Shown: positions 9,606 through 41,200 of the stretch, in pieces
How positions within the stretch are numbered: position 1 is the stretch's first letter
Layout: every line of letters begins with the position of its first letter
Source of the DNA: a virus
Taxonomy: Duplodnaviria > Caudoviricetes
Virus record (IMG/VR): IMGVR_UViG_3300045777_000097
Span: 1-55,901 of that record
Reading direction: 5' to 3' (one strand)
Length of the DNA stretch: 55,901 nt
The notes under the pieces: model-generated
Seen by the model: the letters and a program-made list of their open reading frames with translations, nothing else
Databases searched by the model: none
Told to the model about the DNA's origin: nothing
Program-made: the position numbers and the translations under genes

Positions 9606-9896
9606 ATGACCCCACGGGACTATGCTGCGCTGCAGCGCGCCATGCAGATGGACACCGACACATTCGCCCAATGGCTGTGCTGCGGCCCGCGGACCGCTCA
9701 TCGGTGGCTGAACGGGGATCAGGACATCCCGCGCTGGATCGAGACGTTCGGCCCATTTTTAGTCGAGGCCGCTACCGGGCAGTGGGGGCCGGGTGTGCAG
9801 AAGCGCGTGCTCCTGCTCCCGCGGCTTGGCTTGCAACCCCTCCTGCCGCAGCAGCTTCGGCAGGCCACGGCCGACGCGACATCGGAGTCCCTCTAG
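9606..9896 (+). CDS. Small XRE/Cro-like HTH protein
   Basis: MDTDTFAQWLCCGPRTAHRWLNGDQDIP HTH pattern; GAGGT RBS. Confidence 0.7.
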   Translation: MTPRDYAALQRAMQMDTDTFAQWLCCGPRTAHRWLNGDQDIPRWIETFGPFLVEAATGQWGPGVQKRVLLLPRLGLQPLLPQQLRQATADATSESL

Positions 9897-10207
9897 TGTG
9901 GCGCCTTTGGCGCCATGCCTTGAAGGGCGCGCTTAACCTCGGCGAGGTCACTGGCTTGGACCTGTTCCTGTCCGGATATGGTTCCGAGGTTTCGTGCGAT
10001 TTCGGTCATTGATCGGCGGATGTCCGAAATATCGGACGCCATCGTCTGTGTCACCTCGTGCTCATGCACCATGTCGTGCTGCAAGCCGGTGACGTCTCGG
10101 AGCGTCGTGACCTGACCGGCTGAAAACCACCCGACCACGGCGACTACACCCGCCCCGGCGACGTATTTCAGCACCTCGATAGCGTGGTCGGCGGGGTGGA
10201 CGGACAT
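9893..10207 (-). CDS. Single-TM coiled-coil protein in the lysis region (holin- or spanin-like)
   Basis: YVAGAGVVAVVGWFSAG TM segment followed by coiled coil. Confidence 0.55.
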   Translation of the reverse strand: MSVHPADHAIEVLKYVAGAGVVAVVGWFSAGQVTTLRDVTGLQHDMVHEHEVTQTMASDISDIRRSMTEIARNLGTISGQEQVQASDLAEVKRALQGMAPKAPH

Positions 10208-24411: not shown

Positions 24412-27174
24412 TCACGATCCGTAGTCGCGGCCCCGGAACGGTCCGTCGGAGAACTCCGGAAAGCGATCCGGCCACATCTCTCCCGGGCGCCACCAGAACC
24501 GCTGATGCTTCCCGCGCATGAGATTGTTCTCTTGCGTCCGGAACTGCCGGGCGCCGTCCGGGTCGAGGCTCTTTTGAAGCTGGTCGAGGATCATCCGGTT
24601 GTAGGCCGCCCGGAGATACCAGAGCGTCGAGAACACCGGCGAGGAATAGCGCAGCGTGTTGATGCCGAATTCGCTCACCCGCGACTGCCATGATTTCCTG
24701 CTCGGATGGTTTTTGGGGAGCGCCCAATTCCCGAGGAGGTGCCCCATCTCTCCGGCCGCGTTCATGGCGTCGCCGACCACCGGGCCGAAGAACATTTCGC
24801 CTCCGGACCGGACGTTGTCGGTCATCGACCCGAGGATGAAGTCGCCGAGCCACGGGATCGCGCCGAGCGCGGCGCCGTGGAACCACGTCATGCGCCCTTC
24901 CGGCGTCCTGAAATCCAACGGCGGAATATCCTTCCCGGCCGAGACCTGCTTGAGGCAATAGGCCACCGTCGCCATGAGGACCATCCCGGCGGCCAGCCCG
25001 ATCGCCCACGTTGCCGCGCGCAGCTTGTTCCGGGACCACTCGTGCTGAAAGGCGAGCACCTGCGACACGATCAGCGACGCCTGGAACGAATGGAACATGC
25101 CGGCCGATCGCACGAACTGGCCGAGCACGGTGTTCGGGGTCGACCCGCCCAGCATGGCGGCCTTCCCTCGCAGGGACATCGTCGGGACCGCCTCCTCGCG
25201 CTCCCCGGCCATGTAGGCGAGGAACCGGGTGGCGAGGTCGTCGGCCTTCTTCCGGGCGTCCTCGCGGCCCTTGTCCGATTCGGCGTAGGGCTCTCCGTTG
25301 GGGCCGAATAGCTCCTTCTGGCCCATCAGGCGAAGAACGTCCGCCGGGCGCTGGTCGCCAACCGCGGCGATCTCCTCCGGGCGCAGCCACTTCGCCGACC
25401 CGGTCGCCGGCTCGTGAAGGTCGGCCATCTGAATGACCTGCCAGTCCGACGGGGTGAGGCCGTATCCCTTCATCTTGCTCCGGATCCGCTCCGGGAGGTC
25501 GTACCAGTCCTTCTCCTGCTCCCGTGCCAGCTTCGCGGACAGGTCGCGCATGAAGGTGTCGCGGAGCGATTGGAGCGTCGGGGAGAGGCCGGAGAGGTGG
25601 GTCGTCCTGTCCGGCAACCAGCGCGACCAGCGCGCGACGTGGCGCAGCCTGTTCAGTTGCCGGGCGCCTTCGCCGAGGGTGAACGCCGCCTGGTCGAGAT
25701 TGAACCCGGCGTGCAGGATCTCATCCTTCGACTGCTTCCCGAACGACGCGACCATGTGCGGGACCATCTCCATGATTTCCAGAGGGCGCATGCCGGTGAG
25801 GTAGCGGGCGCTGGCCTGGATCACCGGGTTCACGGAGATGTGGACGAGTTGCGCCGCGCCGAGGAGCGCGCTGTAGGAGATGTTCCGCAACACCGTCCCG
25901 GAAAGCGCGAGGCCGTTCTCGTCGCCGCGGTCGCCCATGAACTGCTGCAGATAGCCGTCGAGCGTCCGTGTCGCCTCCGCCACCTTCGCGGCCGCCATGA
26001 GATGAGGGACGCCCTTGAGCAGACTCCGTTTACTGTCGATCGTCCGCAGGTCGCCCTCGTGCTCGATGAACTGCTTGATGAACTCGACCATGGCGACCGG
26101 GTTCGGCCCCAGCACGCGCATCAGGGCGATGTCGTTCGCCATCGAGGTCCCGTAGTGCAGAAAGTCGGACAGGATGTCGTCGCCGTAGCGGCCGAACTCC
26201 CGGGCGTAGCGCCCCTGAGAATCGGCGTCCTTGAAGACGAAGAAACGGTGGTCCGATCGGGAATTCGCCACCATCGACCCGCCACGTTTCGCCATCGAGG
26301 CGCGATCTGACAGCCGGCCGCCTGTGACGATATTCTTCCATGCCTCCCCGAGGATTCGCATCTTCTCTTCTGCGGAGGGGATGCTGGCGCCGAAAAGTTC
26401 GCCCGTCCAAGGGTCGCGCATCTTCGACCAGTCGAGCATCGGGTTGATGAAGTTCGACCAGTAGAGCCTCGATCGTTCCGGGCTCCACGCCTCTCCGTTG
26501 GCCGCCTTCGTCCCCCCGGCGATCTGCACCGCGTGCGGGTCGTGCGACTGCGGGTTGTGCCAGGTCTCGAGCTTCGGGATCGTGTCGCCGGCGTGGTCGT
26601 TGAAAAGCTGACGCAGCCCGTCCGCCCCTTCGCGGAGTTGCGCGGCGAACGCCTGCATCTCGGGGCTCGTCGATTCGCCGTGGAGCGCCCGGCGGAGGTC
26701 GCCGAACTGCGCGACGTTCTTGCGCCCCCCGGTCAGGCTTCCATCGGAGACGAAGGTCTTGCGCCGCCAGTTCTGCAGCGCATCGGCGATCTTGGCGAAA
26801 TAGCGCCCCTCGATCGCCTCCTTGATCGACCGGACGTTGATCCCCCCCTCGTACCCGTGCCCCTCCAAAAACCCGTAGGCGGCGTCGATCGGGTTCGGCA
26901 TGCCGTGGCGATCGGTGAATTTGGTGAGCCGGTCGACCACCTCGTCCCGCTTCTGCACGGTGAGCATCCGTTGCCGGCGCACCCGCTTCCCGATCGCGTC
27001 GAAGTCCTTCATGGTCGCGGCGCGCGCGGCGGCCCGCTGCCAACCCCGCATCAGGTAGTCCTTGTGCCGGCCGAGAATCCAGTCGGCGTCATTCTGGGAG
27101 ATCGCCGGGCGGCCTTGGGCGTCGCGCTGCTGCGTGAGGGCGCGGATGCAGGATTCGAAGCTCAATCTTCGCAC
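24412..27174 (-). CDS. Internal virion (DNA ejection) protein
   Basis: 920 aa, helical, with C-terminal hydrophobic segments; lies between the giant gene and the tail fibre. Confidence 0.75.
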   Translation of the reverse strand: MRRLSFESCIRALTQQRDAQGRPAISQNDADWILGRHKDYLMRGWQRAAARAATMKDFDAIGKRVRRQRMLTVQKRDEVVDRLTKFTDRHGMPNPIDAAYGFLEGHGYEGGINVRSIKEAIEGRYFAKIADALQNWRRKTFVSDGSLTGGRKNVAQFGDLRRALHGESTSPEMQAFAAQLREGADGLRQLFNDHAGDTIPKLETWHNPQSHDPHAVQIAGGTKAANGEAWSPERSRLYWSNFINPMLDWSKMRDPWTGELFGASIPSAEEKMRILGEAWKNIVTGGRLSDRASMAKRGGSMVANSRSDHRFFVFKDADSQGRYAREFGRYGDDILSDFLHYGTSMANDIALMRVLGPNPVAMVEFIKQFIEHEGDLRTIDSKRSLLKGVPHLMAAAKVAEATRTLDGYLQQFMGDRGDENGLALSGTVLRNISYSALLGAAQLVHISVNPVIQASARYLTGMRPLEIMEMVPHMVASFGKQSKDEILHAGFNLDQAAFTLGEGARQLNRLRHVARWSRWLPDRTTHLSGLSPTLQSLRDTFMRDLSAKLAREQEKDWYDLPERIRSKMKGYGLTPSDWQVIQMADLHEPATGSAKWLRPEEIAAVGDQRPADVLRLMGQKELFGPNGEPYAESDKGREDARKKADDLATRFLAYMAGEREEAVPTMSLRGKAAMLGGSTPNTVLGQFVRSAGMFHSFQASLIVSQVLAFQHEWSRNKLRAATWAIGLAAGMVLMATVAYCLKQVSAGKDIPPLDFRTPEGRMTWFHGAALGAIPWLGDFILGSMTDNVRSGGEMFFGPVVGDAMNAAGEMGHLLGNWALPKNHPSRKSWQSRVSEFGINTLRYSSPVFSTLWYLRAAYNRMILDQLQKSLDPDGARQFRTQENNLMRGKHQRFWWRPGEMWPDRFPEFSDGPFRGRDYGS

Positions 27175-30100
27175 TCCCCTATGATCTTTGCGAGAATAGA
27201 CTCGTGCGGCACGGAATTGACCAGCGTGTCCCTGTCGACGATGTTCCCCTCGCCATCCGGGACCATCCGCAGGAGCGGATTGCCCCCGGCCTCGGCGGGT
27301 TTGGCTGCCGAGGCCGCAGGCGCGGGCGGCGCTGGGCGCAGGGACTCCGCGACGTCCTGATCGCTCCGGGTGTGGAAGACGGCCCCGACCTGCCGCAGGG
27401 CGTCGATCAGATCAGTCGCCGTTTGCGCGCCCACCGTCGCCTTCATCTTCTGGCCGGATAGCTGCCAATTGTCATAGACGCCCCGGACGACGCCATCGGC
27501 GTAATATTTCCGGCCCTCTCTTCGCAGCGCCTCGAAGGCGTAGCGCGGTCCGCTTTTCTTGACCATCAACGCGCCGTCGACCGACCAGACCTCCGCATCC
27601 GGGACAGCGTCGAGGAACTTGATGAGGTGGTCCCCGTCCACGAAGTTGACCGCGCGCTCCTTCATGAACTCCTTGGCGTCGAACATCCGCCCCAGAAGGA
27701 TCGCCGGGCGCGTCTGGCCGCCCTCCATCGTGTGCGTGACGATCTGCCCGGCAAGCTGCTCGTAGCCCGCCAGCAGGTTCCCCGTGACCATGTAGCGGTC
27801 TTCGCGCCCGTCCTTGTTCGCCGCCTCGAACATCGGCCCCAGATCGTCCGCGCGCAGATTCGGGTTGCTCGCGATCGTGACGCTGTCCTCGCGCTCTTTG
27901 CCGCCGGCAATGATGAGGCGCGAAAGCGGGATGGAGAGGGACCGGGAACTGTTCGGCAGCGCGAAAAGCGCGTTCCACGCCGACAACGCGACCGGGTTCT
28001 TGACCTTGGCGTCCCGGGTGAGGCCGATCACGACCGCCGGCATGTCCTCGCCTTTGACGGTGAGCGTGACCGTCGCGCCCGGCCGGGCGACGTCGGACAG
28101 GGTCTCGAGCGAGGCGAAGGCATCCTCGAGCTTCGCCCGCGCCCGGGTCTTGGCGTCCGGATCCTTGGTCGCGGCGACGACCTGCCGGATGTGTTCCTGC
28201 GCCTCTGTCCGCACGCGGGCGATCATCGCGGCCTGCTTCTTGCCCCCGCTCTTTTCGAGCGCGCGGAGCTCCATCGCGAACGGCCGCTTCGTCGGCGTCT
28301 CGCCAAGGTGATCCGCGATCGCCGTCGTGACCTCGTCCGGGCGCATGGCGCGGCCCTGCGCCTTGACCGACACCTTTTCCAGATTGACCGGCCCCTGGAA
28401 CGGGGAGGGCCCGGTCGCCGGCTTGATCTCCGTCGAGTCGATCGTGCGCGCCTGGAGGTCGAGCGACTTCGCCTCGAGGTCGTTCGTCCCGGCGGCGTCC
28501 ATGGCCTCGATGACCGCCTTGTAGGCCGCCGTGATCCGGTCGATGAACTCCTGCTGCTGCTCCGGGTGGAGCAGCGTGAGGCGCCCGGTCGCCTTTGCGG
28601 CCAGGCCAGCGATGTTGTCCTCGATGCCGGGCTCGCCGAGCAGCGTCCAGAGGTCCGGGTCGTCCCGCAGGATCGCCGCAACGGCGCGATCGCCGTATCT
28701 GTTCAGGAAGTCGACCGCGTCGGCGGTGAACTTGCCCTTTGCGGCGCCGGTCGTGTTGGCGTTCAGCGACGCCATCTTTCGCATCAGGATCGCGGTCGGG
28801 CGCGTCTCCGCCGGGATCTCCGCCGCGAGGTGCGTGTAGCGCGGGAGCGTGACCTGCCCGGTGCGGTTGATGCGCCCGAGCATCTGCATGTGGGTATTGA
28901 TGTCCGGGTCGGCCTCCCCAATAATCATGCGCCTTGGGCGCCGATCCTTGAACTTGATCGAGGGGTGCATCGAGAGGCCGGTCGACATCGACTTGTTGCC
29001 GAGCACGGCATCCAGCCTCCCGTCGTTGAACATCTTGACCGTCTGCTTCTTGCCGGCGCTGCCAGTCTCGGACGATGGGCGCCGCACCAAAAAGGTCCCG
29101 CGCCCGGCGTTGTGCTGCGCCATCATGTCCTCGAGGGACGCGCCCCGAAGCGCCGGTTCGTCGGTCTGGTCGGGCGCGTACATCTGCCAGTCTCGCCGGT
29201 TCTCGCCATGGACAAGGGCCGTCGGGAACGGGTGGCTCTCATGCACCGGCGCGGCGACCGAGTAGCCCTGCCGCTCGAGGTCGTCGACCGTCTCCCTCGG
29301 CCGGGAATAGTCGACCATCGCCGATCGCCCGGTGATCTCGCGGATGGAATACCCGGCCTTCTCGATGACGTTCCGGATGGTGTCGAGCGGCGAGACCGGC
29401 AGGTCGCCGAGGTCGATGCTGTCGAGCAGGTCCTCGGCGGCGTGGTACATGTCGAGCGCATGCGCCGACATCATGTGCAGCGGGATCATGACGCGGATCT
29501 TTTCGTCGTCGCCAGATTTGATCGTCACGCGCCGGGTGCGCTCGAGATAGCGTTTCAGGATGTCGACGAAGCCGATGTTGATTTCGTCCCCGATCTTGAT
29601 GCCCTCGTTGTCGGCAAAATCCTTGATGAAGGCGTCGTTGGTTTTCGACAAGGCGATGACCGGCTTCTCCCCGGCCAGAAGCGCCTCGACCGCGCGCTCG
29701 CCGGTCTTCTGCGCTTTCAGCGCCATCACCATCTGGCTGATGATGTTGTGCATGACAGAGGCGAACGAAGTGGCGTCAACCGACGCCTCGCCGACGCCTC
29801 CGTCATGCGTCGTTCCGCCGCCCATCTCCGCGGCGAGCTCCTGGGCGATCTCGAGGCGCTCCTCCTCGAATTCGCGATCGAACTGGAAGATCGAGCGCAG
29901 CCCGTCGGAGAACTCGGAGTAGGCTTGCTCGCTGACGGGGATGCCCTCGTAGTCGTAGTTGATGCCCTCGAAAGACCGCTCCCGGCGCATGTACTGCCCG
30001 GCGTCCGCGAGCATGGACGCCACGATCTGTTGCAGCGGGACTCCGCCCTTGCCGATGAGGTCGGGCAGCTTGGAGACGTCGTCGACCGCCTTCAGCATGT

Positions 30101-33100
30101 CCGTCCGGCTGTAGAGCGTCATCACGTTCGGCGATTTGGCATAAGTCGCGCTCGAATACATGACGGCGCGCGCGGCCCCGACGACCTCCCGAAAGACCTC
30201 AGACCGCGGCGGCGCCTTCTCGTCGTCCTCCCACCCGGCTGATGGATTCGCGGCCCCGCCGGCGTTGTGCGCCTCGTCCATGATGAGGAACGAGCGCGGC
30301 GCGACCTGGCGCAGGAAGTTCCGACGCGGCGTCTCGTTCCCCTTCACGCTGTTCATCTGGTCGTAGGTCGTGAAGACGACATCCGGGGTCGCTGACCCGG
30401 ACAAGATCCCCGACATGACCTCTCCGGCCTTGTTGGAGCTCTGCGACGCCGAGAACGACCCGCGCCGGGGCGGCTCCGGCTGTCCATTCTCCCGCGCGTC
30501 GTCGCGATCGGTCAACCAGTCCAGCGCCTCGTCGTCGAGCGGGATGCGGGTGCCGGAATTCGTCATCGCCATGTTGATCGGGCGGCCGAGTTGCTCATGC
30601 CAGCCGATGTCGTGCAGATCGCGCCACATGTCGCCGTAGAGGTCCGGCTTCTCGGTGACGAAGACCGGGATCATGCCGTGCGTCTTGGCGTAGGAGATCA
30701 TCGCCGCGACGACCCTCCCCTTCCCTAAGCCGGTTTGGTCGCCGATGATGAAGCCTTCGCCGCGCTCGATATTCGAGATGCCGAGACCGATCGCATCGAC
30801 CTGCTCGCCCGAGAAATACTTGCCGAGGTCCGCGACGTTTCGCCCCAGCGCCCGGGCGACATAGGCGTCGATGCTCCCATGCTCCTCCTGCAGCCGGTCG
30901 AGTGAGTTGTAGGTCGCCTCGCGCAGGTTGGCGGGCAGGAGGGTGTTGAGCTTGACGCCTTGGGTCGACGCCGGCTCGTAGGGCGTCTGGCCTTCGACCG
31001 AAGTTCCTACCGATCCCCTTCGCTCGGAATGAGGCGCAGGATTAGCTCCTCGAACGTTGCCGCCTTGCTGAGGTCCGCCCCCTGCTCCCGGAGCCATGGC
31101 AGGCTTTCCGACGCCATTTCCGGGTTGTCCGTGATCGCCTGCTCCACCCACTTGGCCGGGTTCGCCCGGTCCAGTTCCCCCCAACGGTTCAACAGGCGCG
31201 CCTCCGACAGGCGCTTCTCCGCCCACTCCATCGCCGCCTTCGGGTCGTTGCTCTGTTTCAGGAGGAGAAGCGCCTGTTTCGCTATCGGTTCCAACTGCTC
31301 CTGTGACGTCTTCGGTCGGTACGCCATTGAGTTTTCCTCCTACTTCCTCCCAGGTCTTCAGGAGCGGCGGGGGTGTCTTGGTGAGCGGGTCGCGCTCGGA
31401 CTTGCCCCGGCCTTCGATGACGATGACGTCGACCGGCCAGCCGGCGCCCTGTTTCTGGTAGAGGTCGCCGGCCACCGTGAAGATGTCCGAGACCTTGTAA
31501 TTGTTCAACAACTGATAATAGAACCGGCGCTTGGCCTTCGCCATGTAGCCGGCCGCGCGCTCCGCCGGGTCATCGGCCTTGACGCCGCCGACGATCAGCA
31601 CGGCGCGCCCGCCCGACTTCATGGTCTTCAGCGCGTTCAGCGCGATCGCGTGGTCGACCTGATCCGTCCGGAACCCGTCGACTGACCAAATCCGCTTCTC
31701 GCCGCCTTCCTTCACCGTGCCGAACGGCGGGTTGGCGATGACGGCATCCATCTGCCCGGCGCGATCGGCGAACAGGGACTCCGAGGTCGCGTCGGTCGTG
31801 GTCGGGTGGAAGCCTTGCGCCTCGAGCGCCGCGGCGCGCGTCGGGTTGAGCTCGTTCGTGACGGCGTGCTGCGGGTTGGCCTCGATCAGGAGCATACCGT
31901 TCCCGGCCGTCGGCTCGAGGACGCGGGTGTCCGGGCCGATGCCGGCCAGGCGGGACGCGACATATGCGAGCGGGACAGGGGTCGAATAGGCCTGCTCGGC
32001 GATGCTGGTCGATGTCCGGGTGGAGAGGTTGGGCTGGCCCTCGTAGACCTTGAGGAGCTTCCCGAAGGTCTCCGCCGGCGCGGCGCCTGCGGTGCGATCG
32101 GTCTCCACGATGTCCCGGGCGTGCTCGACCACGGCGCGCTCGACGAGCTCGTCGACGAGCTTGTTCGCCGACGTGCCTTCCGGGATCTCGAGGCCGAGTC
32201 CCTTGGCGATCTGGCGCGCTTCGACGATGGACTTGAACGGCTGCTCGCCGCTCGCGAGGCGGGCCTTGATGGCGGCGACGAAGGCGTCGCGGGCGGATTC
32301 CTGTCCGACGGCCGGGGTCTTGGGGAAGGCGTCGGCAACTGCCGCTTCTGCCGCCTGCTCAAGCGTCCAGCCGCCATTTTCAGGAGGTGTGACGTTAACA
32401 CCGGGGCTCTCTCCGTCTGGATAACCAAGCCACCTCCGCAAATCGACACTGAGCTTTGGATTGTCGACGGCGGCCTGGGGGTCGAACGCTACCGAGTGGC
32501 CCCCGCCGCGGTGCTCAAGAACCGTGTACCTTCCGGCCCCCCCGGGTGCCGGAATCATGGCAAACCCGGCCTCCTCCATCGCTTTCAAAAAGGCTTTGGT
32601 CTTGAACTTGTTGGCGAAGGCTGTTTCCGCCTTCGATACCTCGGGCTTCGGCGCCTCGATCGCCGGGCGCTCGACGGAGGTCGGCGGGGCCTTGGGCGCT
32701 TCCTCGGCGAGGATCCGGGCGAACTCGGCGTCGACCTTGTCCGGCCGATCCATGCCGGCGACGTCCAGCCCGCCGTCTTCCATGATGTCGCGAGCGCCGT
32801 TGTACATGCCGCGCAGATAGGGCCGCAGCTCCGCGACACTGGAGTCGAGGTCGCGCACGATCGCCTTCACGAACTTGGCGAAGGTCCGGGCGCCGGCTTC
32901 GATGTGGAAGCCGGCCATCTCCATGCCGATCTGCAAAAGCTCCGGGTCGAAGCCGGCCGACATGGTCGCGGCGGCGTCCTTGAGCTTTTGTTTGAAGCGC
33001 GCCTTCAGTTGCTCGTAGCGGTCCTTCTTGAAGAAGGCGTTGTCGGCCCCGTAGTCGGATCCAAAGCCCTCGCCGGGCTGCTCCTGCGCTCCGGGTTCCT

Positions 33101-36100
33101 CTGCGCCGGCCTCCGCCTTTGTCCCATTTCCCTGCGGCTCTTGAGGCTCGTTAGGCGCGCCGGGCGGCGGAGCGGGCGGAGCGGTCTCCTCGGGGCGACC
33201 CACCCAATTTTCCCCGTCCCAAATCTGGGTGGATTCGACGCCGCGGCGCGCAATGTCACCTTTCCACTGCGCAAGAAGCTTTTCCGGCTCCATGGTGTTG
33301 CTGATTTGGGCCGCCAAGTCCGGCAGCGTCGGCAGGCTGAGATAGCGATAGTCCTCTTCGGACAGGCCGTTCACCCAACGGATTGCCTCATTCATCGCCT
33401 TGACGATGGGGTGCTTTCCAACTTCGTCCTCAAGCGGGAATGGCCGCTGTCTTCCGGGCGCTGGCGTCTCGACCTTGGCCGGCGGCAGGCCCGCGAGCGG
33501 CGGGGCCGGTTCGCCGAAGGCCGCCCGGGTCGCGGCCTCGATCGCTTCGTCCACCGTCAAGATGTCGCCGCCGACCGGGAAATAGCGAGGGGAACCGTCT
33601 GGACGGCGCGATACCTCACCGTGGCGCCCATCCGCAGACCCGCTGATGAGATACCAGTTCCCGTCCGGCCCCTTGACGCCGGGGCGCGTGTTCAGGCTGT
33701 CTCGAAGTTGCGCGGCGAAATGGTCCCGCGTGCCTTCCTTCGGTTCACCGGCGAGCTTCGGCACCTGATAGAACCCAGCCATCCCTTCCGGCGTCACGAC
33801 AATCTGCGGTGTTCCGTAGACGGGCGCGCCTTTGTCGATCTTCCAGCCGTAGACCGTCAGGACTGATCGCGCCGGTTTCCCGGTATCCTGCGCCACGGCC
33901 CAGGTGACGAGCGCGGCGCCGTTCGGATCCACTCCGTCCCCCCGGCGCTTCGGCTTCAGGCCGCGCGCGGCGAGGTCGGCGAAATGGTGGAGTTCGAGCC
34001 CCTTGTCGGTGAGATCGGGGAGGCCGGGCGGGAGTGCGGCGCTTTCCGGGGACAGAACCCGCACGAAATGCCGAAGGTGGTTGAGCGGCGACGGTGCGAG
34101 GCCTTGCACCCCTTCCTCAAGCACAACGGGCGCGCTGTTCGGTGAACCCTGCGGGACGGTGCGAAAGGTTTCCCGCCGCTCATAACGGTTCTCGACTTTC
34201 TCCCACGTCGAGACTTGCCCCTTATCCGGGTCGAAAGCGACGTGCCAGCCTTCCGGGAGGTTCCGAATCGCGTCCGCCGTGGCCTTGTCGACCGTGACCT
34301 CCGCCCGCGCGGCGAGACGATCCGCTTCCGCCTTTACGGCCTCTTCTTGGTCCAGCCGATCGAACTCTGCCTTGATGGCCGGTTCTAGGTCTTCCGGAAC
34401 CTTTCCTGTGAGATTGTAGCGGTGGACGCCACGCGCTCGGAGGGCTTTCGCCAAGGCAGCGATGTCGACTGCGGGATTCTCCGCCGGCGCGGGCGTCAGC
34501 AGCCCCGGCATGTCCGGGGGCAGGCCGCCGCCGAACAGGCCATCCTCCGGCAGCGGCGCGGCGCCGCCCTTCAGAGGCTTCCCGGCCGCGGTCTCCGCCT
34601 TCTCCTTGTCCGTGACCGGCTTCATGCCGGGGAGAAGGGTCTGGCCCCCGGCCTCAGTGTGCTCAGTGACGGGCGCGGGGGTCTCAGTAGCCTCCGTCGG
34701 CGCGGCGGCCTGCGGCGGGAAAAGCTCGTCGATGACCGGCTCTGCGGCCTTGATGAGGCCCGACGCGATCTGGTCGGCCGGCGTGCCGCTCGCGTCGAGG
34801 GCACCCGTGACCTGCTCGACGAGACCGTGCGCAGCTTCGGCGACCGGGTGGGGCGCCGACTGAGGCTCGACAGGGGCGGCGGCCTGCGCCGTGGCGGCGG
34901 CTTCCGCCTCCTCCTTCGCCTTCCGGCGCGCCTCCGCGGCCTCGAGCTCCGCCGTCTGCTGCGCCTGGCCCTGCGGCGTCCCGGTGTCGATGTCGGTCCG
35001 GGGGGCGGGGACGATCGGCGGCGCGCCGTCGAGTTTGAGTCCTTCCTCCCGGATCAGCCGCTCGATGTCCTCGAGGAACAACCGTGCGGCGGCCATGGGC
35101 TCCATGCCGTCGGCGACGTTCCCGGCCGCCTTGTTCAGCGCGGCCGAGACCGGCCCGTGCCGGGTGGCGAGCTTTTCGAGGATCAGGCCGAGTCGTTCCG
35201 CGCGATCCGCGATCGCGGCGTTCGAGCCTGCAAGCACGTTCCCGGCCGCCTCGATCCGGCTCTGCTCGTTGTCGAGCATCCGGAAGATGCGCTTGTTGTC
35301 GCGCAGGAGCGCCATCACCCGCGAGAAGACCTGTGCGCGCTCGCCGGCGAGGGTCCGCGTCGCCGAGTGCGAGCCGAACATGTCCTCGAAGGTGTCTTCC
35401 TTGAACCCGGCGGCGTTCGCATCGGCCACGATCATCCGGGCGGCGTTCTCGTCGGACGGCTTGAACTTGACCATGTCCGCCATCACGGCGGCCTGCTTCG
35501 TCTTGTCGGCCACGCCGAGACCGACGATGGCGGCGAAGTTCGGCTTCACCTGGCCGTTGAGCACCATCCGCCATGCTTCGTCCGAAAGCTCGGCGAGGCC
35601 CTTGCCTTGCTTCAGTTTGGGATCGGAGACCGGCAGGCTCTTGTCCCAGATTTCCGGGTGGTCACGGAGGATTCGCGCGACGTCGATCACGTCGGCGCCC
35701 GGGCCGCCCTCCTGCAGGTTCTTCTTGGCGGCGCGCGCGCGGGCGTCTTCGACCGTCCAGCCGTCGGCCTCCCGCAGCCGGTCGCCCATGACGCGCGTGC
35801 CGGGCGGAAGCTGGCCTTGCGCATGGAGGTCTTTGGCGAGGCCCGTGCGCTGGTGCCCGTCGGCGACGTACAGGCTTCCGTCGTGGCGCTCATGGACGAC
35901 GATCTTGCCCGTCGCCATCGGATCCCACGCCGCGCCCTTGAGCCGACTCGTGACGCCGTTCTCGTCTCCGCCGCCCTTGTACTGGTAGGCGACAGCGTCG
36001 GTTTTGAGTGCGAGCGGGTCGAAGGTCTCGTTGACGTGGACCGGGCGCCCGGTGACGGAATCCGTCTGCACGCTCCCGCCAGCCCCGCCGCCGCTCTGCC

Positions 36101-38201
36101 TTTCGCCCGGCCGAATGTCGGAGATCGTCTCCGGGAGAACGTCTCGGGAGAAGCCGAGATGGTCATAGACCACGGCGGAGCCGCGGCTGTCCCACCCGCT
36201 GATCTCGCCGGTGTGCGTCCTGCCGCCGGCGTCCTGCCCGGTGACGACGTCGCCCGGGCGCAAGGCGCGGATGGCGCCCTGCTTGTCTTCCGGAAGGCCC
36301 GCCGTCGCCATCGCGGCGTCGCGCGCGTCGGCGTACTTCTGGAAGTCGCTGGCGCGCTGCTCGTAATCGCGGGCCTCCTCGGGCGACAGGTTCCCCGCTG
36401 AGATCGCCTGTCGGAGGAAGGAAATCCGGTTCTGGATTGCGTCGGCGTGCGGCCCGTCATAGCCGCTCGTCCGGGTGACGGCGCCGCCCGATGGCGCGTT
36501 GTCGGGCTGGATCGGAGAGGGGGGCGCATCCGGCGTGTGGACCGGCGGCAGGGGCGGCGCGATCTCGTCCGGGTTCTGCCCGTGGCGGACGTGGCCCTCG
36601 TAATTCGTCAGCACGTCACCCGGGGCGTGATCCGGATGGACCGGCGGCGCGGCCGCGGCGTCGAGCTCTGCGGAATGGACGCCGGACGGAGTGACGGTGG
36701 TCGGTGCGGGCGGAGTCTCTCCCCCGACCTTGCCCGGCGCCGGGAGCGCCAGCATCCCGCCCCCGCCCCCGCCCGCAGGCGGCGTCCATTGGTCGGTCTT
36801 GTTGTCGTAGGTCCACCCGGCGTCGCTCTTGCGGATGAACTCGTCGATCTCATCCCGCCAATTTCGTTGCTGCTCCGTCTTCGGCCATCCGCCGGGCGGC
36901 GGCGTCTCCCCGGCGCGCTTTACGAACTCGCCCACCGGCGTCAGGCCGTGCCAGGCCATCCAGCCCTCGCCGATCCCGTGGATGACGCCCGCCGGGATCC
37001 CGCCCATAAGGAATGACCCCACCTCGTCGTAGAGCACCGGCAAGAACCCGGTCGGTTGCCCGAGCTCTCGGCGGCGCTCCTCGCGACCGGGCTCCTGCAC
37101 GCCCGTCAATCCGGCTTGGATCGCGCCCTGCTTGACGGCCTGTTCTGCGATGCGCCCGATCGCGGATCGCGCCGTCGCCGCGCCGCCGCCGCCGACCATG
37201 AGGCCGATTCGGTTGATCGGATCGCTGATCGTCGAGCCCCAGATTTCGCCCGCCGTCGCCGCGAGCCACGGCAGGAAGTAGCCGCCAGACTTGGCGTATT
37301 CCGCCTGATATTTGTCGCTTTGCGACTTGATGTAGGCGTCGGCGTAATCGTTCGCGTTGAGCCCAGCGTGGACCGCGGCGAGGAGCGCGGGATTGTCCGG
37401 GTTCGCGGCTGCGATCTCGTTGAGATGATTCTGGTAGAGGCGGAACTGTTCCTGCATGAGCGGGCTACCGAACGTCCCGACCGTCGACAGGCTTGAGTTC
37501 ATGAGGTTGGGGATCGCGCCGCCAACCTTGTCGATCGCCAGCGTGAACGGGTCGTAGCCGAGGTTCTTGGCCGCCTCGTCGCGGTAGCCCCCGAGGAACG
37601 GATTCGGGATCACCTCACCCTTGAGCGCCTTCACCTGGGAGATCGTGTCCGCGATCGAACTGGCGAGCGCGTTCTGCCGGTCGCCGCCGTCCGTGCCCCA
37701 GGCGCCCATCTCCGAGTGGTGCCAGAAGTTCTCCCATAGGTTCATCGGCGGCTGCGCCGGCGCGGGAGGCGCGGCGGGAGGCGAGAACTTCGCTTCCGGG
37801 ACATCTGACGGCGGCGGGGGCGCGTTCCCGGTCCACTGTTCGATCTCAGGCGCGGCGGCGCCGGCCGCCGACTGCTGCGCCGCCTCGGGCGTGGCGCGCA
37901 GAGCCTGTCCGACCCCGGCGGCGTCCTTCGCCAGGCCCTGCGCTGCGTTGGCGGCGCCCTCTGCGATGGCCGGGGCAGCGGATGCGCCCGCCTCGCCGAC
38001 GCTGCGCATGGGGTCCGCGCTGATCGTGGCGGTGGAGAGCGGATCGGTCTTGGTGAACCGAGACCACATCGACTCGGTGTCGGTCGGGCCGCTGTAGAAG
38101 GGCTCGCCCCGGGCCGACTTGGTATAGGAATCATCTGCGTCAATTGGCGCGGCCCCGCCCGCGCCGCCAGCCCCATCGAATCCGGGATCTCGGTCGGCCA
38201 T
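27162..38201 (-). CDS. Giant DarB-like polyvalent virion protein: ParB-like domain, N6-adenine methyltransferase, strawberry-notch-type SF2 helicase
   Basis: YVADGHQR (ParB-like); YSTP, VLEPTAGNG, IANPPFG (MTase); IGDQTGLGKGR, MDEAH, SSATY, QMLGRINRTGQ (helicase). Confidence 0.9.
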   Translation of the reverse strand: MADRDPGFDGAGGAGGAAPIDADDSYTKSARGEPFYSGPTDTESMWSRFTKTDPLSTATISADPMRSVGEAGASAAPAIAEGAANAAQGLAKDAAGVGQALRATPEAAQQSAAGAAAPEIEQWTGNAPPPPSDVPEAKFSPPAAPPAPAQPPMNLWENFWHHSEMGAWGTDGGDRQNALASSIADTISQVKALKGEVIPNPFLGGYRDEAAKNLGYDPFTLAIDKVGGAIPNLMNSSLSTVGTFGSPLMQEQFRLYQNHLNEIAAANPDNPALLAAVHAGLNANDYADAYIKSQSDKYQAEYAKSGGYFLPWLAATAGEIWGSTISDPINRIGLMVGGGGAATARSAIGRIAEQAVKQGAIQAGLTGVQEPGREERRRELGQPTGFLPVLYDEVGSFLMGGIPAGVIHGIGEGWMAWHGLTPVGEFVKRAGETPPPGGWPKTEQQRNWRDEIDEFIRKSDAGWTYDNKTDQWTPPAGGGGGGMLALPAPGKVGGETPPAPTTVTPSGVHSAELDAAAAPPVHPDHAPGDVLTNYEGHVRHGQNPDEIAPPLPPVHTPDAPPSPIQPDNAPSGGAVTRTSGYDGPHADAIQNRISFLRQAISAGNLSPEEARDYEQRASDFQKYADARDAAMATAGLPEDKQGAIRALRPGDVVTGQDAGGRTHTGEISGWDSRGSAVVYDHLGFSRDVLPETISDIRPGERQSGGGAGGSVQTDSVTGRPVHVNETFDPLALKTDAVAYQYKGGGDENGVTSRLKGAAWDPMATGKIVVHERHDGSLYVADGHQRTGLAKDLHAQGQLPPGTRVMGDRLREADGWTVEDARARAAKKNLQEGGPGADVIDVARILRDHPEIWDKSLPVSDPKLKQGKGLAELSDEAWRMVLNGQVKPNFAAIVGLGVADKTKQAAVMADMVKFKPSDENAARMIVADANAAGFKEDTFEDMFGSHSATRTLAGERAQVFSRVMALLRDNKRIFRMLDNEQSRIEAAGNVLAGSNAAIADRAERLGLILEKLATRHGPVSAALNKAAGNVADGMEPMAAARLFLEDIERLIREEGLKLDGAPPIVPAPRTDIDTGTPQGQAQQTAELEAAEARRKAKEEAEAAATAQAAAPVEPQSAPHPVAEAAHGLVEQVTGALDASGTPADQIASGLIKAAEPVIDELFPPQAAAPTEATETPAPVTEHTEAGGQTLLPGMKPVTDKEKAETAAGKPLKGGAAPLPEDGLFGGGLPPDMPGLLTPAPAENPAVDIAALAKALRARGVHRYNLTGKVPEDLEPAIKAEFDRLDQEEAVKAEADRLAARAEVTVDKATADAIRNLPEGWHVAFDPDKGQVSTWEKVENRYERRETFRTVPQGSPNSAPVVLEEGVQGLAPSPLNHLRHFVRVLSPESAALPPGLPDLTDKGLELHHFADLAARGLKPKRRGDGVDPNGAALVTWAVAQDTGKPARSVLTVYGWKIDKGAPVYGTPQIVVTPEGMAGFYQVPKLAGEPKEGTRDHFAAQLRDSLNTRPGVKGPDGNWYLISGSADGRHGEVSRRPDGSPRYFPVGGDILTVDEAIEAATRAAFGEPAPPLAGLPPAKVETPAPGRQRPFPLEDEVGKHPIVKAMNEAIRWVNGLSEEDYRYLSLPTLPDLAAQISNTMEPEKLLAQWKGDIARRGVESTQIWDGENWVGRPEETAPPAPPPGAPNEPQEPQGNGTKAEAGAEEPGAQEQPGEGFGSDYGADNAFFKKDRYEQLKARFKQKLKDAAATMSAGFDPELLQIGMEMAGFHIEAGARTFAKFVKAIVRDLDSSVAELRPYLRGMYNGARDIMEDGGLDVAGMDRPDKVDAEFARILAEEAPKAPPTSVERPAIEAPKPEVSKAETAFANKFKTKAFLKAMEEAGFAMIPAPGGAGRYTVLEHRGGGHSVAFDPQAAVDNPKLSVDLRRWLGYPDGESPGVNVTPPENGGWTLEQAAEAAVADAFPKTPAVGQESARDAFVAAIKARLASGEQPFKSIVEARQIAKGLGLEIPEGTSANKLVDELVERAVVEHARDIVETDRTAGAAPAETFGKLLKVYEGQPNLSTRTSTSIAEQAYSTPVPLAYVASRLAGIGPDTRVLEPTAGNGMLLIEANPQHAVTNELNPTRAAALEAQGFHPTTTDATSESLFADRAGQMDAVIANPPFGTVKEGGEKRIWSVDGFRTDQVDHAIALNALKTMKSGGRAVLIVGGVKADDPAERAAGYMAKAKRRFYYQLLNNYKVSDIFTVAGDLYQKQGAGWPVDVIVIEGRGKSERDPLTKTPPPLLKTWEEVGGKLNGVPTEDVTGAVGTDSETGASPPETEQRPEGGDGVGGEAPVGGAPVEPLGGTGPGEPGQVGGAGDHGQPGNGVGKPAMAPGAGGGPQQGGNVRGANPAPHSERRGSVGTSVEGQTPYEPASTQGVKLNTLLPANLREATYNSLDRLQEEHGSIDAYVARALGRNVADLGKYFSGEQVDAIGLGISNIERGEGFIIGDQTGLGKGRVVAAMISYAKTHGMIPVFVTEKPDLYGDMWRDLHDIGWHEQLGRPINMAMTNSGTRIPLDDEALDWLTDRDDARENGQPEPPRRGSFSASQSSNKAGEVMSGILSGSATPDVVFTTYDQMNSVKGNETPRRNFLRQVAPRSFLIMDEAHNAGGAANPSAGWEDDEKAPPRSEVFREVVGAARAVMYSSATYAKSPNVMTLYSRTDMLKAVDDVSKLPDLIGKGGVPLQQIVASMLADAGQYMRRERSFEGINYDYEGIPVSEQAYSEFSDGLRSIFQFDREFEEERLEIAQELAAEMGGGTTHDGGVGEASVDATSFASVMHNIISQMVMALKAQKTGERAVEALLAGEKPVIALSKTNDAFIKDFADNEGIKIGDEINIGFVDILKRYLERTRRVTIKSGDDEKIRVMIPLHMMSAHALDMYHAAEDLLDSIDLGDLPVSPLDTIRNVIEKAGYSIREITGRSAMVDYSRPRETVDDLERQGYSVAAPVHESHPFPTALVHGENRRDWQMYAPDQTDEPALRGASLEDMMAQHNAGRGTFLVRRPSSETGSAGKKQTVKMFNDGRLDAVLGNKSMSTGLSMHPSIKFKDRRPRRMIIGEADPDINTHMQMLGRINRTGQVTLPRYTHLAAEIPAETRPTAILMRKMASLNANTTGAAKGKFTADAVDFLNRYGDRAVAAILRDDPDLWTLLGEPGIEDNIAGLAAKATGRLTLLHPEQQQEFIDRITAAYKAVIEAMDAAGTNDLEAKSLDLQARTIDSTEIKPATGPSPFQGPVNLEKVSVKAQGRAMRPDEVTTAIADHLGETPTKRPFAMELRALEKSGGKKQAAMIARVRTEAQEHIRQVVAATKDPDAKTRARAKLEDAFASLETLSDVARPGATVTLTVKGEDMPAVVIGLTRDAKVKNPVALSAWNALFALPNSSRSLSIPLSRLIIAGGKEREDSVTIASNPNLRADDLGPMFEAANKDGREDRYMVTGNLLAGYEQLAGQIVTHTMEGGQTRPAILLGRMFDAKEFMKERAVNFVDGDHLIKFLDAVPDAEVWSVDGALMVKKSGPRYAFEALRREGRKYYADGVVRGVYDNWQLSGQKMKATVGAQTATDLIDALRQVGAVFHTRSDQDVAESLRPAPPAPAASAAKPAEAGGNPLLRMVPDGEGNIVDRDTLVNSVPHESILAKIIGECED
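31007..31327 (-). CDS. Overprinted 106-aa helical protein nested in an alternative frame of the giant gene
   Basis: GGAGGAAGTAGGAGG-AAAACTCA-ATG; mostly G/C-ending codons in this frame while the host frame becomes A/T-ending and low complexity. Confidence 0.7.
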   Translation of the reverse strand: MAYRPKTSQEQLEPIAKQALLLLKQSNDPKAAMEWAEKRLSEARLLNRWGELDRANPAKWVEQAITDNPEMASESLPWLREQGADLSKAATFEELILRLIPSEGDR

Positions 38202-41200
38202 TATTCGTTCCCCGTCGGGATGGAGGGTTCGCCAGAAGCCACAGCGCCGTCACCCGGCTCGATCATCGGCTTCACGTCTCGATAGCGCGGCTGTAGCCGG
38301 GGGGTGGCGCGGTCCATGAAGGCGCCCGGGACGGCAGGCGCGCTACCGCCGCTCCCTCGCATCCGGTCCTCGACCCTGCTCATGTCGAAGTGCCAGACGC
38401 GGCCGCGGCCGTCCTCGACCTCGTGAAACTGATTCCCGTTTTTCGGGTCCGGGAGCTCGACGGTGTAGACGCCGTGGAAGAGGCCATCCTTCCCGGGCAC
38501 GGCGACGAACCGTCCCTGCTTCAGCATGTCCGCAGAGATCGGCGTCTGCCCGACGTGAGGGTCCGCCCCCATCGCCTTGATGTCGCCAGCGTTCAGTTGC
38601 CCGATCACGGTGTCGAACTTGTCGGCGCGCATATTGCTCGGGACGATGACCTTGTAGCTCGACGGGCCGCTCCACCCGCCCCCCGCCGTCGTGACGCCGC
38701 CGTACTGGACTTCCTCGCCGGTGGACGTGTCGATATGGCCGCCCAAGGCGGCATTGTAGGCTTTGTCGACGAACGGTTGCTCGACCTTGCCTGTCGCCGG
38801 GTCAAATCCAGCCTGCCGGGCGTCGTCCGTCATCAGGAGGCGGGCGGCGGCGTTGATGCGCCCGAAGGCGTCGGGGCTGAATTTGGAGTAGGGGCCTCCC
38901 TGCCCGGACTGATCCGAAAGAGGGTTCGCCAGCACGTTTTTGGCGAGCGTCCCCTCAGTGAAGATCGGCAGGCCCTTTGCCGCTCCAGACGGCCCCTTGT
39001 CGTTCATCGCCGCGATCGTGTCGGCGAGACGGCGAATCGTGAGGGACTGGTCGACGTTCGGGTCCAGCGCCAGGCCGCCGATGGTCATGAACGCCGGCGC
39101 GTCGCCGCCGATCTGCCGGAAGACGGATTGGGCATCCGGTCCAGCGCCGCTCACGACGGCCTTCGCCATGTTGACCATGGAGTCTCCCCCGTACTGGCCG
39201 ACCCGGCGCATGGTGACGCGCTCGTCCGGGCGGATGAACTGCGCCTCGGGCAGCCCCATCGCCTGCGCGGCCACCTTCGCCTGCTGGACTCGGTCGGAGA
39301 TGTCCTGCGCCAGCGTCGGGCTCGCCGGGTCCAAGGCCTTCGGCGGCGGGATGAAGCCCTCGCGCGCGGCCCGGCCGATCGGGTCCTTCTTCGCCTCCTG
39401 CGCGAAATTCTTGGCGTAGTTCTCTTCCGATTCGACAACGGACCGGGCGATGTCGAGGCCCGGGTGTCTTGGATCGCTCGCAACCATGTTGTCGAGTTCG
39501 GCCCGGTCCCGCGCGACGGCGGCGGAAACCACCTCCGGAGAGGCGTTCCAGAGCCCCTTGATCCGGTTCCTGACCGCCTCCGCGACCGCGAGTTGCTGCC
39601 GAACCTCCGGGTTGGCGGAGTTGCCGAACGCGGAAACCATCTTCTGAAACCCGGCGTCCGCGTCCTGGCCGGAGAGGCGCGACCCCTGCTCCATGTCCTT
39701 GATGGCGGAGTTGATGGTGTCCTTGTCGCCTCGATCATCGCGCCGGGTGGCAGCGGCGGACTCGCGCTGCCACCGCTGGATGTCCCCGACGGCGCGCAAC
39801 TGCATCTCGGCGCGCGTCTGCGGAGACAGCATGTTCGCGACGCTGCCCGGCGGGGGAGGCGGGAGCGCCGCCCATTGCGCGCCGGTCGCCCTCGACCCGG
39901 GCACGGGCTGCGAGGAGCCGTCGCCCATCGTGAAGGAGGCGGACCCATCCGGCCCGGTCGTGACGCCCGTGGCGCCCTGCGGCCACTTCGCCTGTGGGGG
40001 CGCGGCCGGGTGGACGGCGTCGGGCGGCGGCACCGCGAGCGGCGACAGCGGCGACGAGAGGAGAGGCTCGATCGGCAGACCAGCCGACATCCCGGTCAGG
40101 CTTGCCGAACCGGGGATCGTCATGCCCCCAGGGCCGGCATACGAGCGGCCGGGGATCGGCGCTCCATTCGATCCTGTGAAAGTTCCGTTCGCCATCTGCG
40201 AGAAATATCGGAGCGTATTCAGGCGCCCGGCATAGTTGTCCCCATTTTGCGGAGCGCTATTAGAATACCCACGGGGTTCCTCAAAGTGCATTTCGGCAAG
40301 AGCGAGGTCTTCCGGGGTCTTGGCGGAGTTAACGAGCGCAGATTCCGGTCTCTTCCGAAGCTCGTTCAGCGCCTCGATGGACTGCTGCTGCCAATCCATC
40401 CCCATCAGATTCAGGCGTTGCAGGTTGTGACCGAACAGGCCGTAGCCTTTCCCGCCGTCATGGACTGCAGTCTGGTTAAACGAGCTTTCGTTCGCCGCCG
40501 CCCCGGTCAGCATCAGCGCCTCGTTGTTGGAGGCTCCTTGCGATCGGAGAAACTGGTACATCGTCGCCGGCGACGTGAACCCACCTTCGCCTTTGGCGTC
40601 AAGAGGCGCCCGGTACGGAGCGTTGATCGCGCCATAACCCTGCGGAGACGGCGCGCCGACGCCCCCCGAGGCGCTCCCCCCGCCTGGGAGGCCAACGCCG
40701 CCAAGCGCCGGATATGCGCCTGGCCCCGCCGGCGCGCCGGTGTTGATGGCGAAATAGTTGTTGGCGTCCTTCTCGCCGCCGCCCGGCGCGCCGCGCTTGT
40801 AGGTCGTCACGACCGGGCCGCCCGATCCGGGGTTGCCGTTGTGCGCGGCCCACTGGTTCCAGAGGATGAGATCGCCGTCCGCCGTGTAGCCAGCGACGAT
40901 GCCGGCGTGCGTCGTGTTGTTGCCGGGCGCGCCTACCCCCTGGCCGCCGTCGTAGCGATTGGACGGGTTCCCCGCCCGGTCCATGAAGGTCGCGACCGGC
41001 GTTCCGATCGGTAGTTGGTTCTGGACCGCGTTGGCCCCGCGCGCCCACAACCCCACCGGGGGCAGCCCGGCCGCCTTCTGGACCAGCGTGACGCATTCCC
41101 CATTGGGGAGGGTCGGGGCGATCGCCTGGATGCGCGCCGCGAGCGCGGGGTCTCCGCCCGGGGGCGTGACAGAGGCGCCCGTAGCGCCCCCGGCGGCGGC

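Follow-up and report, generated by a model that had tools for sequence, protein, structure and literature searches.

A probable gene nested in the linker between methyltransferase and helicase of a giant phage protein

The stretch of DNA discussed here, called the window throughout, is the whole of a 55.9-kb virus record at 66% GC (IMGVR_UViG_3300045777_000097, positions 1 to 55,901), and its subject is a small open reading frame (ORF), which we call X, embedded in the +1 frame of a giant gene on the minus strand. The giant gene encodes an adenine methyltransferase (MTase), marked by an NPPF motif, N-terminal to a Strawberry-notch-type ATPase, both in one polypeptide (a single ORF), and X lies over the segment that joins the two. 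We consider it highly probable that this is a dual-coding locus with a separately translated nested gene. To judge from sequence comparison, X is the constrained frame, and the host reading of the same bases is a Gly/Pro-rich tether dictated by X.

Position, recurrence and start of the nested frame

A sequence-only reading of the window had described a same-strand ORF of 106 aa in a shifted frame, placed between the MTase and the helicase, and this description is correct in each respect: the ORF occupies 31007..31327 (-) in the +1 frame, with the same translation, and it starts 22 codons past the end of the conserved MTase block (host aa 2270) and stops about 5 codons before the conserved helicase N terminus. 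Both frames are open over the whole overlap, in the window as well as in the relatives described below (16/16 loci of a first set and 78/78 of a second).

In 31301..31002, GC at the three codon positions (GC1/2/3) is 0.84/0.68/0.41 in the host frame, against 0.69/0.49/0.85 gene-wide, and 0.68/0.41/0.84 in the X frame, which matches the genome's usual signature. No other 300-nt segment of the giant gene has its lowest GC at position 3, and the phase is partly shifted where segments also overlap X (0.78/0.58/0.59 in 31451..31152 and 0.75/0.56/0.66 in 31151..30852). The frame-specific comparison of GC3 that had been proposed with the sequence-only reading thus finds the signature switching to the X frame in 31301..31002 alone. 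The same reading had credited the nested frame with the genome's G/C-ending bias and had seen in the host frame a Gly/Pro/Glu linker with A/T-ending codons; both claims stand, and the host reading of the overlap in the window is 43% Gly+Pro and 11% hydrophobic.

X-bearing loci in other elements were reached solely through searches with the flanking helicase N-region, not with X. The X protein (P0002) or its alignment (A1) gave no confirmed locus in viral, genome, or metagenome contigs, and tblastn of X against phages and plasmids gave no match. A first search of viral contigs returned 18 loci, and the 16 with matches to both MTase and helicase were scored. In 16/16, the two domains share one open frame and are accompanied by a +1 ORF of 101-172 codons, which in each case starts at one host motif, W..[VL]..K[LI][ND]G. 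The two unscored loci, L015 and L018, have no MTase match; L015 holds no nested ORF, and L018, a distant helicase relative without an MTase match upstream, has at 9650-10000, directly before the helicase, more than 110 codons open in the +1 frame, where the host segment is acidic and Gly/Thr-rich.

A wider viral search found 195 relatives, of which 80 were kept; MTase and helicase are both matched in 78 of these, and the other two are truncated at contig ends. In 78/78, the two domains share an open host frame and the linker begins with a +1 span of 92-228 codons, in genomes that range from 36% to 71% GC. Position 3 of the host frame has the lowest GC over the nested span in 77/78 loci, as against 8/78 for the helicase flank. 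With nine re-fetched loci counted once, 85/85 viral contigs that have both domains carry the +1 ORF. The cultured Bacteroides phage BS-TP4, which is reported to occur in 31.3% of a set of gut viromes (PMC12694917), has a 119-codon +1 ORF at the same place, and no other +1 span of its 5395-codon gene reaches 100 codons. Long +1 spans also occur elsewhere in these genes: a phage at 42% GC (L081) has a 243-codon +1 open span in its giant gene, outside the linker, and +1 spans of 100-137 codons are likewise found away from the linker at several other low-GC loci.

Ten plasmids were examined, 330 further plasmid records lying outside this count. The nested ORF is present in 6/10, from Gloeobacter, Chroococcidiopsis, Picosynechococcus (two plasmids), Acaryochloris, and Thalassospira, and absent from the other four, which come from Persicobacter, Pseudomonas, Cupriavidus, and Xanthomonas. 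The Persicobacter plasmid encodes MTase and helicase as separate genes, and in the distant MTase-Strawberry-notch fusions of the Pseudomonas, Cupriavidus, and Xanthomonas plasmids the linker is of an ordinary acidic type, its GC phase is normal, and X is missing. The nested ORF is likewise absent from an Acinetobacter phage relative (27% identity). The arrangement is old, and within one clade of polyvalent proteins from phages and plasmids it has been passed down together with the MTase-helicase dyad.

How would X be translated? The doubled Shine-Dalgarno (SD) element that the sequence-only reading had placed 8 nt before the ATG is indeed there, as GGAGGAAGTAGGAGG at 31350..31336, and in the host frame it encodes part of WEEVGG. 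That reading had also suggested looking in other such genes for a ribosome-binding site plus ORF in the same linker; the ORF is found in 78/78 loci and an SD-like motif (GGAG/GAGG/AGGA, 4-18 nt upstream) in 64/78, compared with 10.8% of random positions. Purine-rich GGAG/AGGA recurs at the same spacing in relatives, and the host residues encoded over it vary (GG, GA, GE, KE, KG, EE). Reading on from the preceding +1 stop, one meets ATG as the first start codon in 67/78 loci; the start comes immediately after the stop in 38/78 and within 5 codons of it in 62/78. No promoter-like or terminator-like sites were found within 30700..31800. This pattern of start, SD, and lack of a nearby promoter fits internal initiation of X on the giant mRNA, as predicted from the DNA.

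Family, fold and selection

The closest relatives of X in protein collections are 105-106 aa long and 53-78% identical to it. A profile of 11 X sequences matches 217 representative clusters (50% identity) at E<=1e-3, 76 of them at E<=1e-10, and most of the matching proteins are 93-112 aa long and align end to end. A jackhmmer search started from the window's X recruits 69/78 nested ORFs and 0/2533 six-frame decoy ORFs, and the final profile also finds two plasmid copies (6.6e-7 and 8e-6). When 17 loci are compared all against all by BLAST, 23/136 pairs are significant in the X frame versus 4/136 in the host frame, and X-frame bits exceed host-frame bits in 23/23 significant pairs (e.g., 76 versus 13 and 93 versus 16).

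AlphaFold2 models of X have five helices, with a pLDDT of 80.2 when built from 11 sequences and 83.4 from 111 and a pTM of 0.70-0.71. The protein is acidic (pI 5.06, with a median of 4.69 over 117 representatives). Only L22 and N68 are conserved at 90% or more among 111 aligned members, and the last helix and a short acidic tail are conserved inside subfamilies. With so few conserved residues, X looks less like an enzyme than like a protein with a binding or structural role.

There are, in addition, larger proteins in which X is fused in frame at the C terminus (P0007, P0004, P0018, P0036, P0037, P0042, P0045, and P0059). The modules ahead of it include DUF3761 with a topoisomerase-type zinc ribbon, an unknown 228-aa domain, and polyvalent-type helical modules; P0007 has a DNA-binding zinc ribbon ahead of X, and P0036, P0042, and P0059 combine polyvalent-typical pieces with X. 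A 297-aa protein and its 175-aa orthologue carry X behind a topoisomerase-type zinc ribbon. Whether nested or fused behind other modules, X always ends its polypeptide. The non-nested X proteins may be free-standing, to judge from their own sequences and the sizes of their contigs. P0018 is encoded on a 125-kb contig, and context searches with P0004, P0007, P0036, P0018, and P0095 gave zinc-finger matches or nothing.

Which of the two frames is under selection? Sequencing runs vary too little from one another to support a population test, and the comparison was therefore made on closely related fetched loci, in eight pairs of equal length, two of which are near-duplicates of each other. In the X frame, 126 differences are synonymous and 123 non-synonymous (50.6% synonymous versus 23.5% expected, p=2e-20). 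The same differences read in the host frame divide 55:197 (21.8% versus 27% expected), with no excess of synonymous change, and hence no sign of amino-acid selection, in the host frame over the overlap in the eight pairs. Without one of the near-duplicate pairs, the ratios are 102:101 in the X frame and 45:160 in the host frame. The flanks of the Picosynechococcus PCC 7003/7002 pair give host-frame ratios of 44:5 over the helicase and 37:15 over the MTase. A comparison of this dN/dS type had been put forward with the sequence-only reading, and it finds the synonymous excess in the X frame and none in the host frame.

X diverges about twice as fast as its surroundings (mean identity among loci 0.24, versus 0.49 and 0.54 for the flanks), and it does so in step with them: X and helicase identities correlate with a Spearman coefficient of 0.41 (Mantel 0 of 999), compared with 0.42 for MTase and helicase. 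Per-position identity over 9 distant loci is near saturation and weakly informative. Across X, contigs from four runs equal the window without indels, save for one change at 31335, which is silent in the host frame and lies 5' of the X ATG. In a contig from run X6, aligned to 30961-31458 of the window, the flanks exceed 80% identity and 499 unalignable letters replace 496 across the nested region, which fits X evolving faster than its flanks.

The host frame is under a constraint of another kind. Synonymous resampling of the X codons, with codon usage taken from the giant gene itself, left the host frame open in 0-11% of resamples at 16/17 loci (11% for the window's X) and in 47% at one, although it is really open at 17/17. 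Median Gly+Pro and hydrophobic contents are 31% and 12% for the host reading, 10% and 33% for X, and 13% and 31% for the flanks, and the host reading is less hydrophobic than X in 78/78 loci. An open frame beyond what resampling gives, together with low hydrophobicity, suggests that the giant protein is translated across X as a flexible tether. In total, the earlier view of a selected nested gene that is genetically inseparable from the enzyme is upheld by recurrence in 85/85 contigs, membership in one family, frame-specific selection, and a conserved ATG and SD.

Mechanism, origin and alternatives

We propose a mechanism in which X, an acidic, all-helical protein of about 100 aa with no conserved catalytic-type residues, would be made as a separate protein from the +1 frame, translated off the giant-gene mRNA by internal initiation at its own ATG behind the SD. 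Ribosomes translating the giant ORF would read the same bases one position earlier and produce a Gly/Pro-rich, hydrophobic-poor tether, which would join the N6-adenine methyltransferase covalently to the Strawberry-notch-type helicase. In this model, selection would act on the amino-acid sequence of X, and the host frame would mainly be kept open and probably flexible.

What might X do, and which frame came first? We speculate, tentatively, that X has no enzymatic role of its own and serves the MTase-helicase as a binding partner or accessory subunit that needs a free C terminus. The sequence-only reading had thought of an inhibitor, chaperone, or packaging partner; each of these may hold, the one finding that bears on them being the obligate linkage of X to the enzyme. 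An in-frame domain between MTase and helicase would be without a free C terminus, which favors X as a partner on a separate chain. With about the same reserve, we suggest that the linker may have arisen by reading through a pre-existing X, so that the host frame would overprint X: X has normal composition and a good predicted fold and occurs in frame elsewhere, while the host reading is anomalous and disordered, and by the usual criteria for overlapping genes the host linker is then the derived member. The sequence-only reading had spoken of an overprinted gene; the selected nested gene stands, and the direction was probably the reverse, given the normal composition of X and the Gly/Pro-rich host reading. 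In a joint reading, MTase and helicase were fused by -1-frame readthrough of X, whose shifted translation would supply a disordered tether from the outset, and X, with its start, stop, and free C terminus retained, is an obligate accessory subunit acting in trans; we would still bet against it.

Several observations weigh against a single, separately translated family of nested genes. The jackhmmer search from X misses 9/78 nested ORFs; against the profile, the nested ORFs of BS-TP4, of the viral loci L016 and L012, and of the cyanobacterial plasmid loci L125 and L126 score as noise, and that of plasmid locus L127 gave no score. These misses mean that homology is established for part of the nested ORFs; common descent of every nested copy, judged from position, is likely, and the sequence proof is incomplete. 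X finds no family match in Pfam, PHROGs, or NCBIfam, and its model finds no structural match in the Protein Data Bank or BFVD. L008/L069 is without an SD-like motif, and its start is uncertain. In low-GC loci, composition does not lean clearly to X (the host frame of L057 has 0.45/0.44/0.28). Finally, 13 stretches of at least 100 codons are open in the +1 frame of the giant gene, and the length of the nested ORF is unremarkable in high-GC relatives. Because long +1 spans are so frequent in these giant genes, ORF length was dropped as evidence for X, and composition and comparative data carry the case.

Is there a nested gene at all? The 13 long +1 spans of a high-GC gene would be expected if X were a chance ORF, and frame hybrids among some metagenomic proteins would be expected if X were an in-frame domain displaced by paired sequencing or assembly indels. 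We regard either account as having next to no chance of being right, in that the same +1 offset appears in 85 independent viral contigs, a cultured phage genome, and finished plasmids, independent runs give the window sequence without indels, the ORF is kept in low-GC relatives, and selection is frame specific. The hybrids themselves (P0090, P0025, and P0019) run from the MTase frame into the X frame and could be real MTase-X fusions. The point at which the frame switches differs in each of the three, their MTase motifs depart from invariant residues, and one of them was called as a 193-aa protein though it lies on a 23.8-kb contig; because these motifs are also broken, we read the hybrids as probably indel-laden assemblies or decaying copies and set them aside as evidence for fusions or frameshifting.

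Could X instead be reached by a programmed +1 ribosomal frameshift, giving a truncated MTase product that ends in X beside the full-length protein? X is always C-terminal where it is fused in frame, the three hybrids pass from one frame to the other just as such a product would, and +1 shifting can be promoted by an SD-like element 5' of the shift site, prfB being an example. A ribosomal frameshift leaves the DNA unmarked, however, so the hybrids trace back to indels in their contigs. In 38/78 loci the ATG comes directly after the +1 stop, and in 62/78 the two are within 5 codons of each other, so that any shift would have to take place no earlier than the conserved ATG; the codons that precede this ATG differ among loci (CTC, CTG, CTT, CTA, TTG, ATC, GTC), there is no host-frame stop or shared slippery word, and the 8-nt spacing from SD to ATG in the window fits initiation. 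Frameshifting is thus a very improbable route to X. Somewhat less remote, though still improbable, is the idea that X is the cargo of an old out-of-frame insertion, a selfish gene lodged in a harmless loop and serving mobility or addiction. There is a published precedent in phage ShiLan (PMC11855218), X is found in other protein contexts, and the distant Pseudomonas, Cupriavidus, and Xanthomonas plasmid fusions are without X, which implies that X was gained or lost once. Unlike a selfish insertion of that kind, X is not sporadic (85/85 viral contigs of the clade carry it) and co-diverges with its flanks as tightly as MTase does with helicase. It matches no nuclease family in Pfam, PHROGs, or NCBIfam, its model is all-helical with only L22 and N68 conserved at 90% or more in 111 sequences, and it has an SD, which the ShiLan case is without. 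A separately translated nested gene remains the reading that we prefer.

Host gene, precedents and significance

Features of the giant gene and its overlap, in window coordinates
Feature	Coordinates	Strand	Basis or remark
Giant host gene	27162..38201	(-)	single ORF, 3679 aa; MTase + Strawberry-notch-type helicase
Methyltransferase core (host aa 2001-2270), with NPPF motif	31392..32201	(-)	alignment A4
Doubled Shine-Dalgarno-like element GGAGGAAGTAGGAGG	31336..31350	(-)	ends 8 nt before X ATG at 31327
Nested gene X (probable)	31007..31327	(-)	106 codons + TAG, ATG start, +1 frame of giant ORF
Host-frame Gly/Pro/Glu-rich linker (host aa 2292-2398), MTase to helicase	31007..31328	(-)	host translation
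Helicase N-terminal region (host aa 2400-2799)	29805..31004	(-)	alignment A5 + Pfam AAA_34

Based on its domain matches and its neighborhood, the giant gene product is identified as a polyvalent protein of the virion module that combines an MTase with a Strawberry-notch-type helicase. Pfam returned two helicase families only, AAA_34 (aa 2482-2761, 74.2 bits against a cutoff of 27) and Helicase_C_4 (aa 3054-3179, 46.4 bits against a cutoff of 30.5), the LPD36 model not being specifically searched. PHROG matches are to DNA methyltransferases at aa ~2003-2206 and to a "DarB-like" family at aa 1685-1846. The MTase alignment (A4, 12 sequences) has a mean column identity of 61%, with N157, P158, P159, and F160 invariant.

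The neighbors of the giant gene match virion structural, tail, and head-tail adaptor PHROGs, and the genes around it form a tightly packed structural operon. The giant-gene ATG and the end of the upstream 1280-aa ORF (38201-42043, -), for which a PHROG search gave no match, have base 38201 in common, and the 3' end overlaps a gene for a 920-aa virion structural protein (24412-27174, -; phrog_684) by 13 nt. GC3 falls to 0.72-0.80 at 33100-34600 (-) (host aa ~1200-1700), compared with 0.84-0.95 in most of the gene, with no frame inversion in that stretch, which may be a module of different origin.

Embedded overlapping genes are already known, and this nested linker gene is new among them. The lambda spanin genes are the familiar case: Rz1, which starts independently, is wholly contained in Rz, on the same strand and in the +1 frame, and the two products act together. 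This is a functional analogy to X in a different setting: Rz1 is a lipoprotein in a lysis cassette whose host gene is small, whereas the host of X is a 3679-aa enzyme, the overlapped segment is a disordered linker, and interaction between X and its host is conjectural. In Bacillus subtilis, comS lies out of frame in the giant srfA gene for a nonribosomal peptide synthetase and has its own initiation, and like X it is a small ORF in a giant multidomain gene, co-transcribed with it and genetically inseparable from it. However, ComS has 46 aa, a narrow distribution, and an overlap with a folded enzyme domain; X has ~100-150 aa, occurs in a wide range of phages and plasmids, and dictates the sequence of the linker that it overlaps. 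Small viruses also overprint on one strand, as in PhiX174 (B in A, E in D), with one frame dominant and the other disordered. There the usual rationale is genome compression and the small gene is the novel frame, whereas the window belongs to a genome of 56 kb or more, in which the small gene seems to be the older and dominant frame.

Among phage methylases, the nearest parallel is the ShiLan insertion, an out-of-frame ORF in an actinobacteriophage DNA methylase gene (PMC11855218). As described there, a stretch of the methylase gene is stop-free in the host frame and holds a complete ORF in another frame, with start and stop, the host reading being thought a tolerated loop. The ShiLan ORF is an HNH homing endonuclease, sporadic, actively homing, and with no detectable ribosome-binding site. 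By contrast, X has no nuclease features, has an SD, is fixed throughout the examined members of the clade, diverges in step with its host gene, and sits in the inter-domain linker of an MTase-helicase polyvalent protein. That host is itself of a recognized type: a survey of polyvalent proteins (Iyer et al. 2017, PMC5512222) describes a DNA methylase-helicase dyad, including a Strawberry-notch-like version, and the DarB-type dyad likewise is a large protein of phages or plasmids in which an N6-adenine MTase with NPPF precedes a SWI2/SNF2-type ATPase. In the main text of the survey, neither "overlapping" nor "frameshift" occurs, and there is nothing on an embedded gene in the dyad linker; searches of the literature, likewise confined to main texts, gave no report of a gene embedded in an MTase-helicase linker. 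A tblastn search of phages with the window protein at E<=1e-10 gave 3 records, P1 not among them, and because P1 was not retrieved, we take the window protein to be a dyad of the same kind and not a close DarB orthologue.

Database annotation has dealt unevenly with the overlap. In 4/6 X-bearing plasmid records, one giant coding sequence (CDS) runs over the overlap with no X listed, and the BS-TP4 record likewise lists the giant gene and no X. In the RefSeq record of Gloeobacter morelensis plasmid pGMOR1, the nested ORF (L121:3848-4297) is annotated as a 149-aa hypothetical protein, WP_230844304.1; the Strawberry-notch CDS (4294 onwards) is given an internal Met, 4 nt short of the X stop, as its start, and the MTase part is left without a CDS, though the host frame is open from MTase to helicase. 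Here the giant gene looks mis-split to make room for X. In the record of plasmid pAQ6 (Picosynechococcus PCC 7002), a single Strawberry-notch CDS spans the overlap, and the locus seems to be interrupted upstream (L130:1-2400): an "N-6 DNA methylase" CDS is separated by a RelE/ParE toxin-antitoxin pair from the Strawberry-notch CDS, in which the MTase match begins only at query residue 94. The pAQ6 copy of X is intact and 89% identical to that of PCC 7003.

X thus represents an overlooked family (217 clusters), present in every clade member examined and missed or mishandled by annotation. Its arrangement is a long-lived case of same-strand dual coding in double-stranded DNA elements of at least 50 kb, in which compression is no obvious driver, and this points to a functional coupling of X with the MTase-helicase. 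It also illustrates a design principle, namely, that the coding sequence of a folded protein, read one base off, gives a stop-free Gly/Pro tether. Tractable carriers of the arrangement are at hand in the cultured Bacteroides phage BS-TP4, with Bacteroides salyersiae as host and its nested ORF at L039:8866-9222, and in plasmid pAQ6 of Picosynechococcus PCC 7002, whose nested ORF lies at L130:3081-3584. X is a candidate for an unknown component of antirestriction-type machines. If the joint reading of its origin and role were true, "fusion by frame-skipping" would be a general, unrecognized route to domain fusion, and X would be a hidden third component of the DarB-like antirestriction machines of phages and plasmids.

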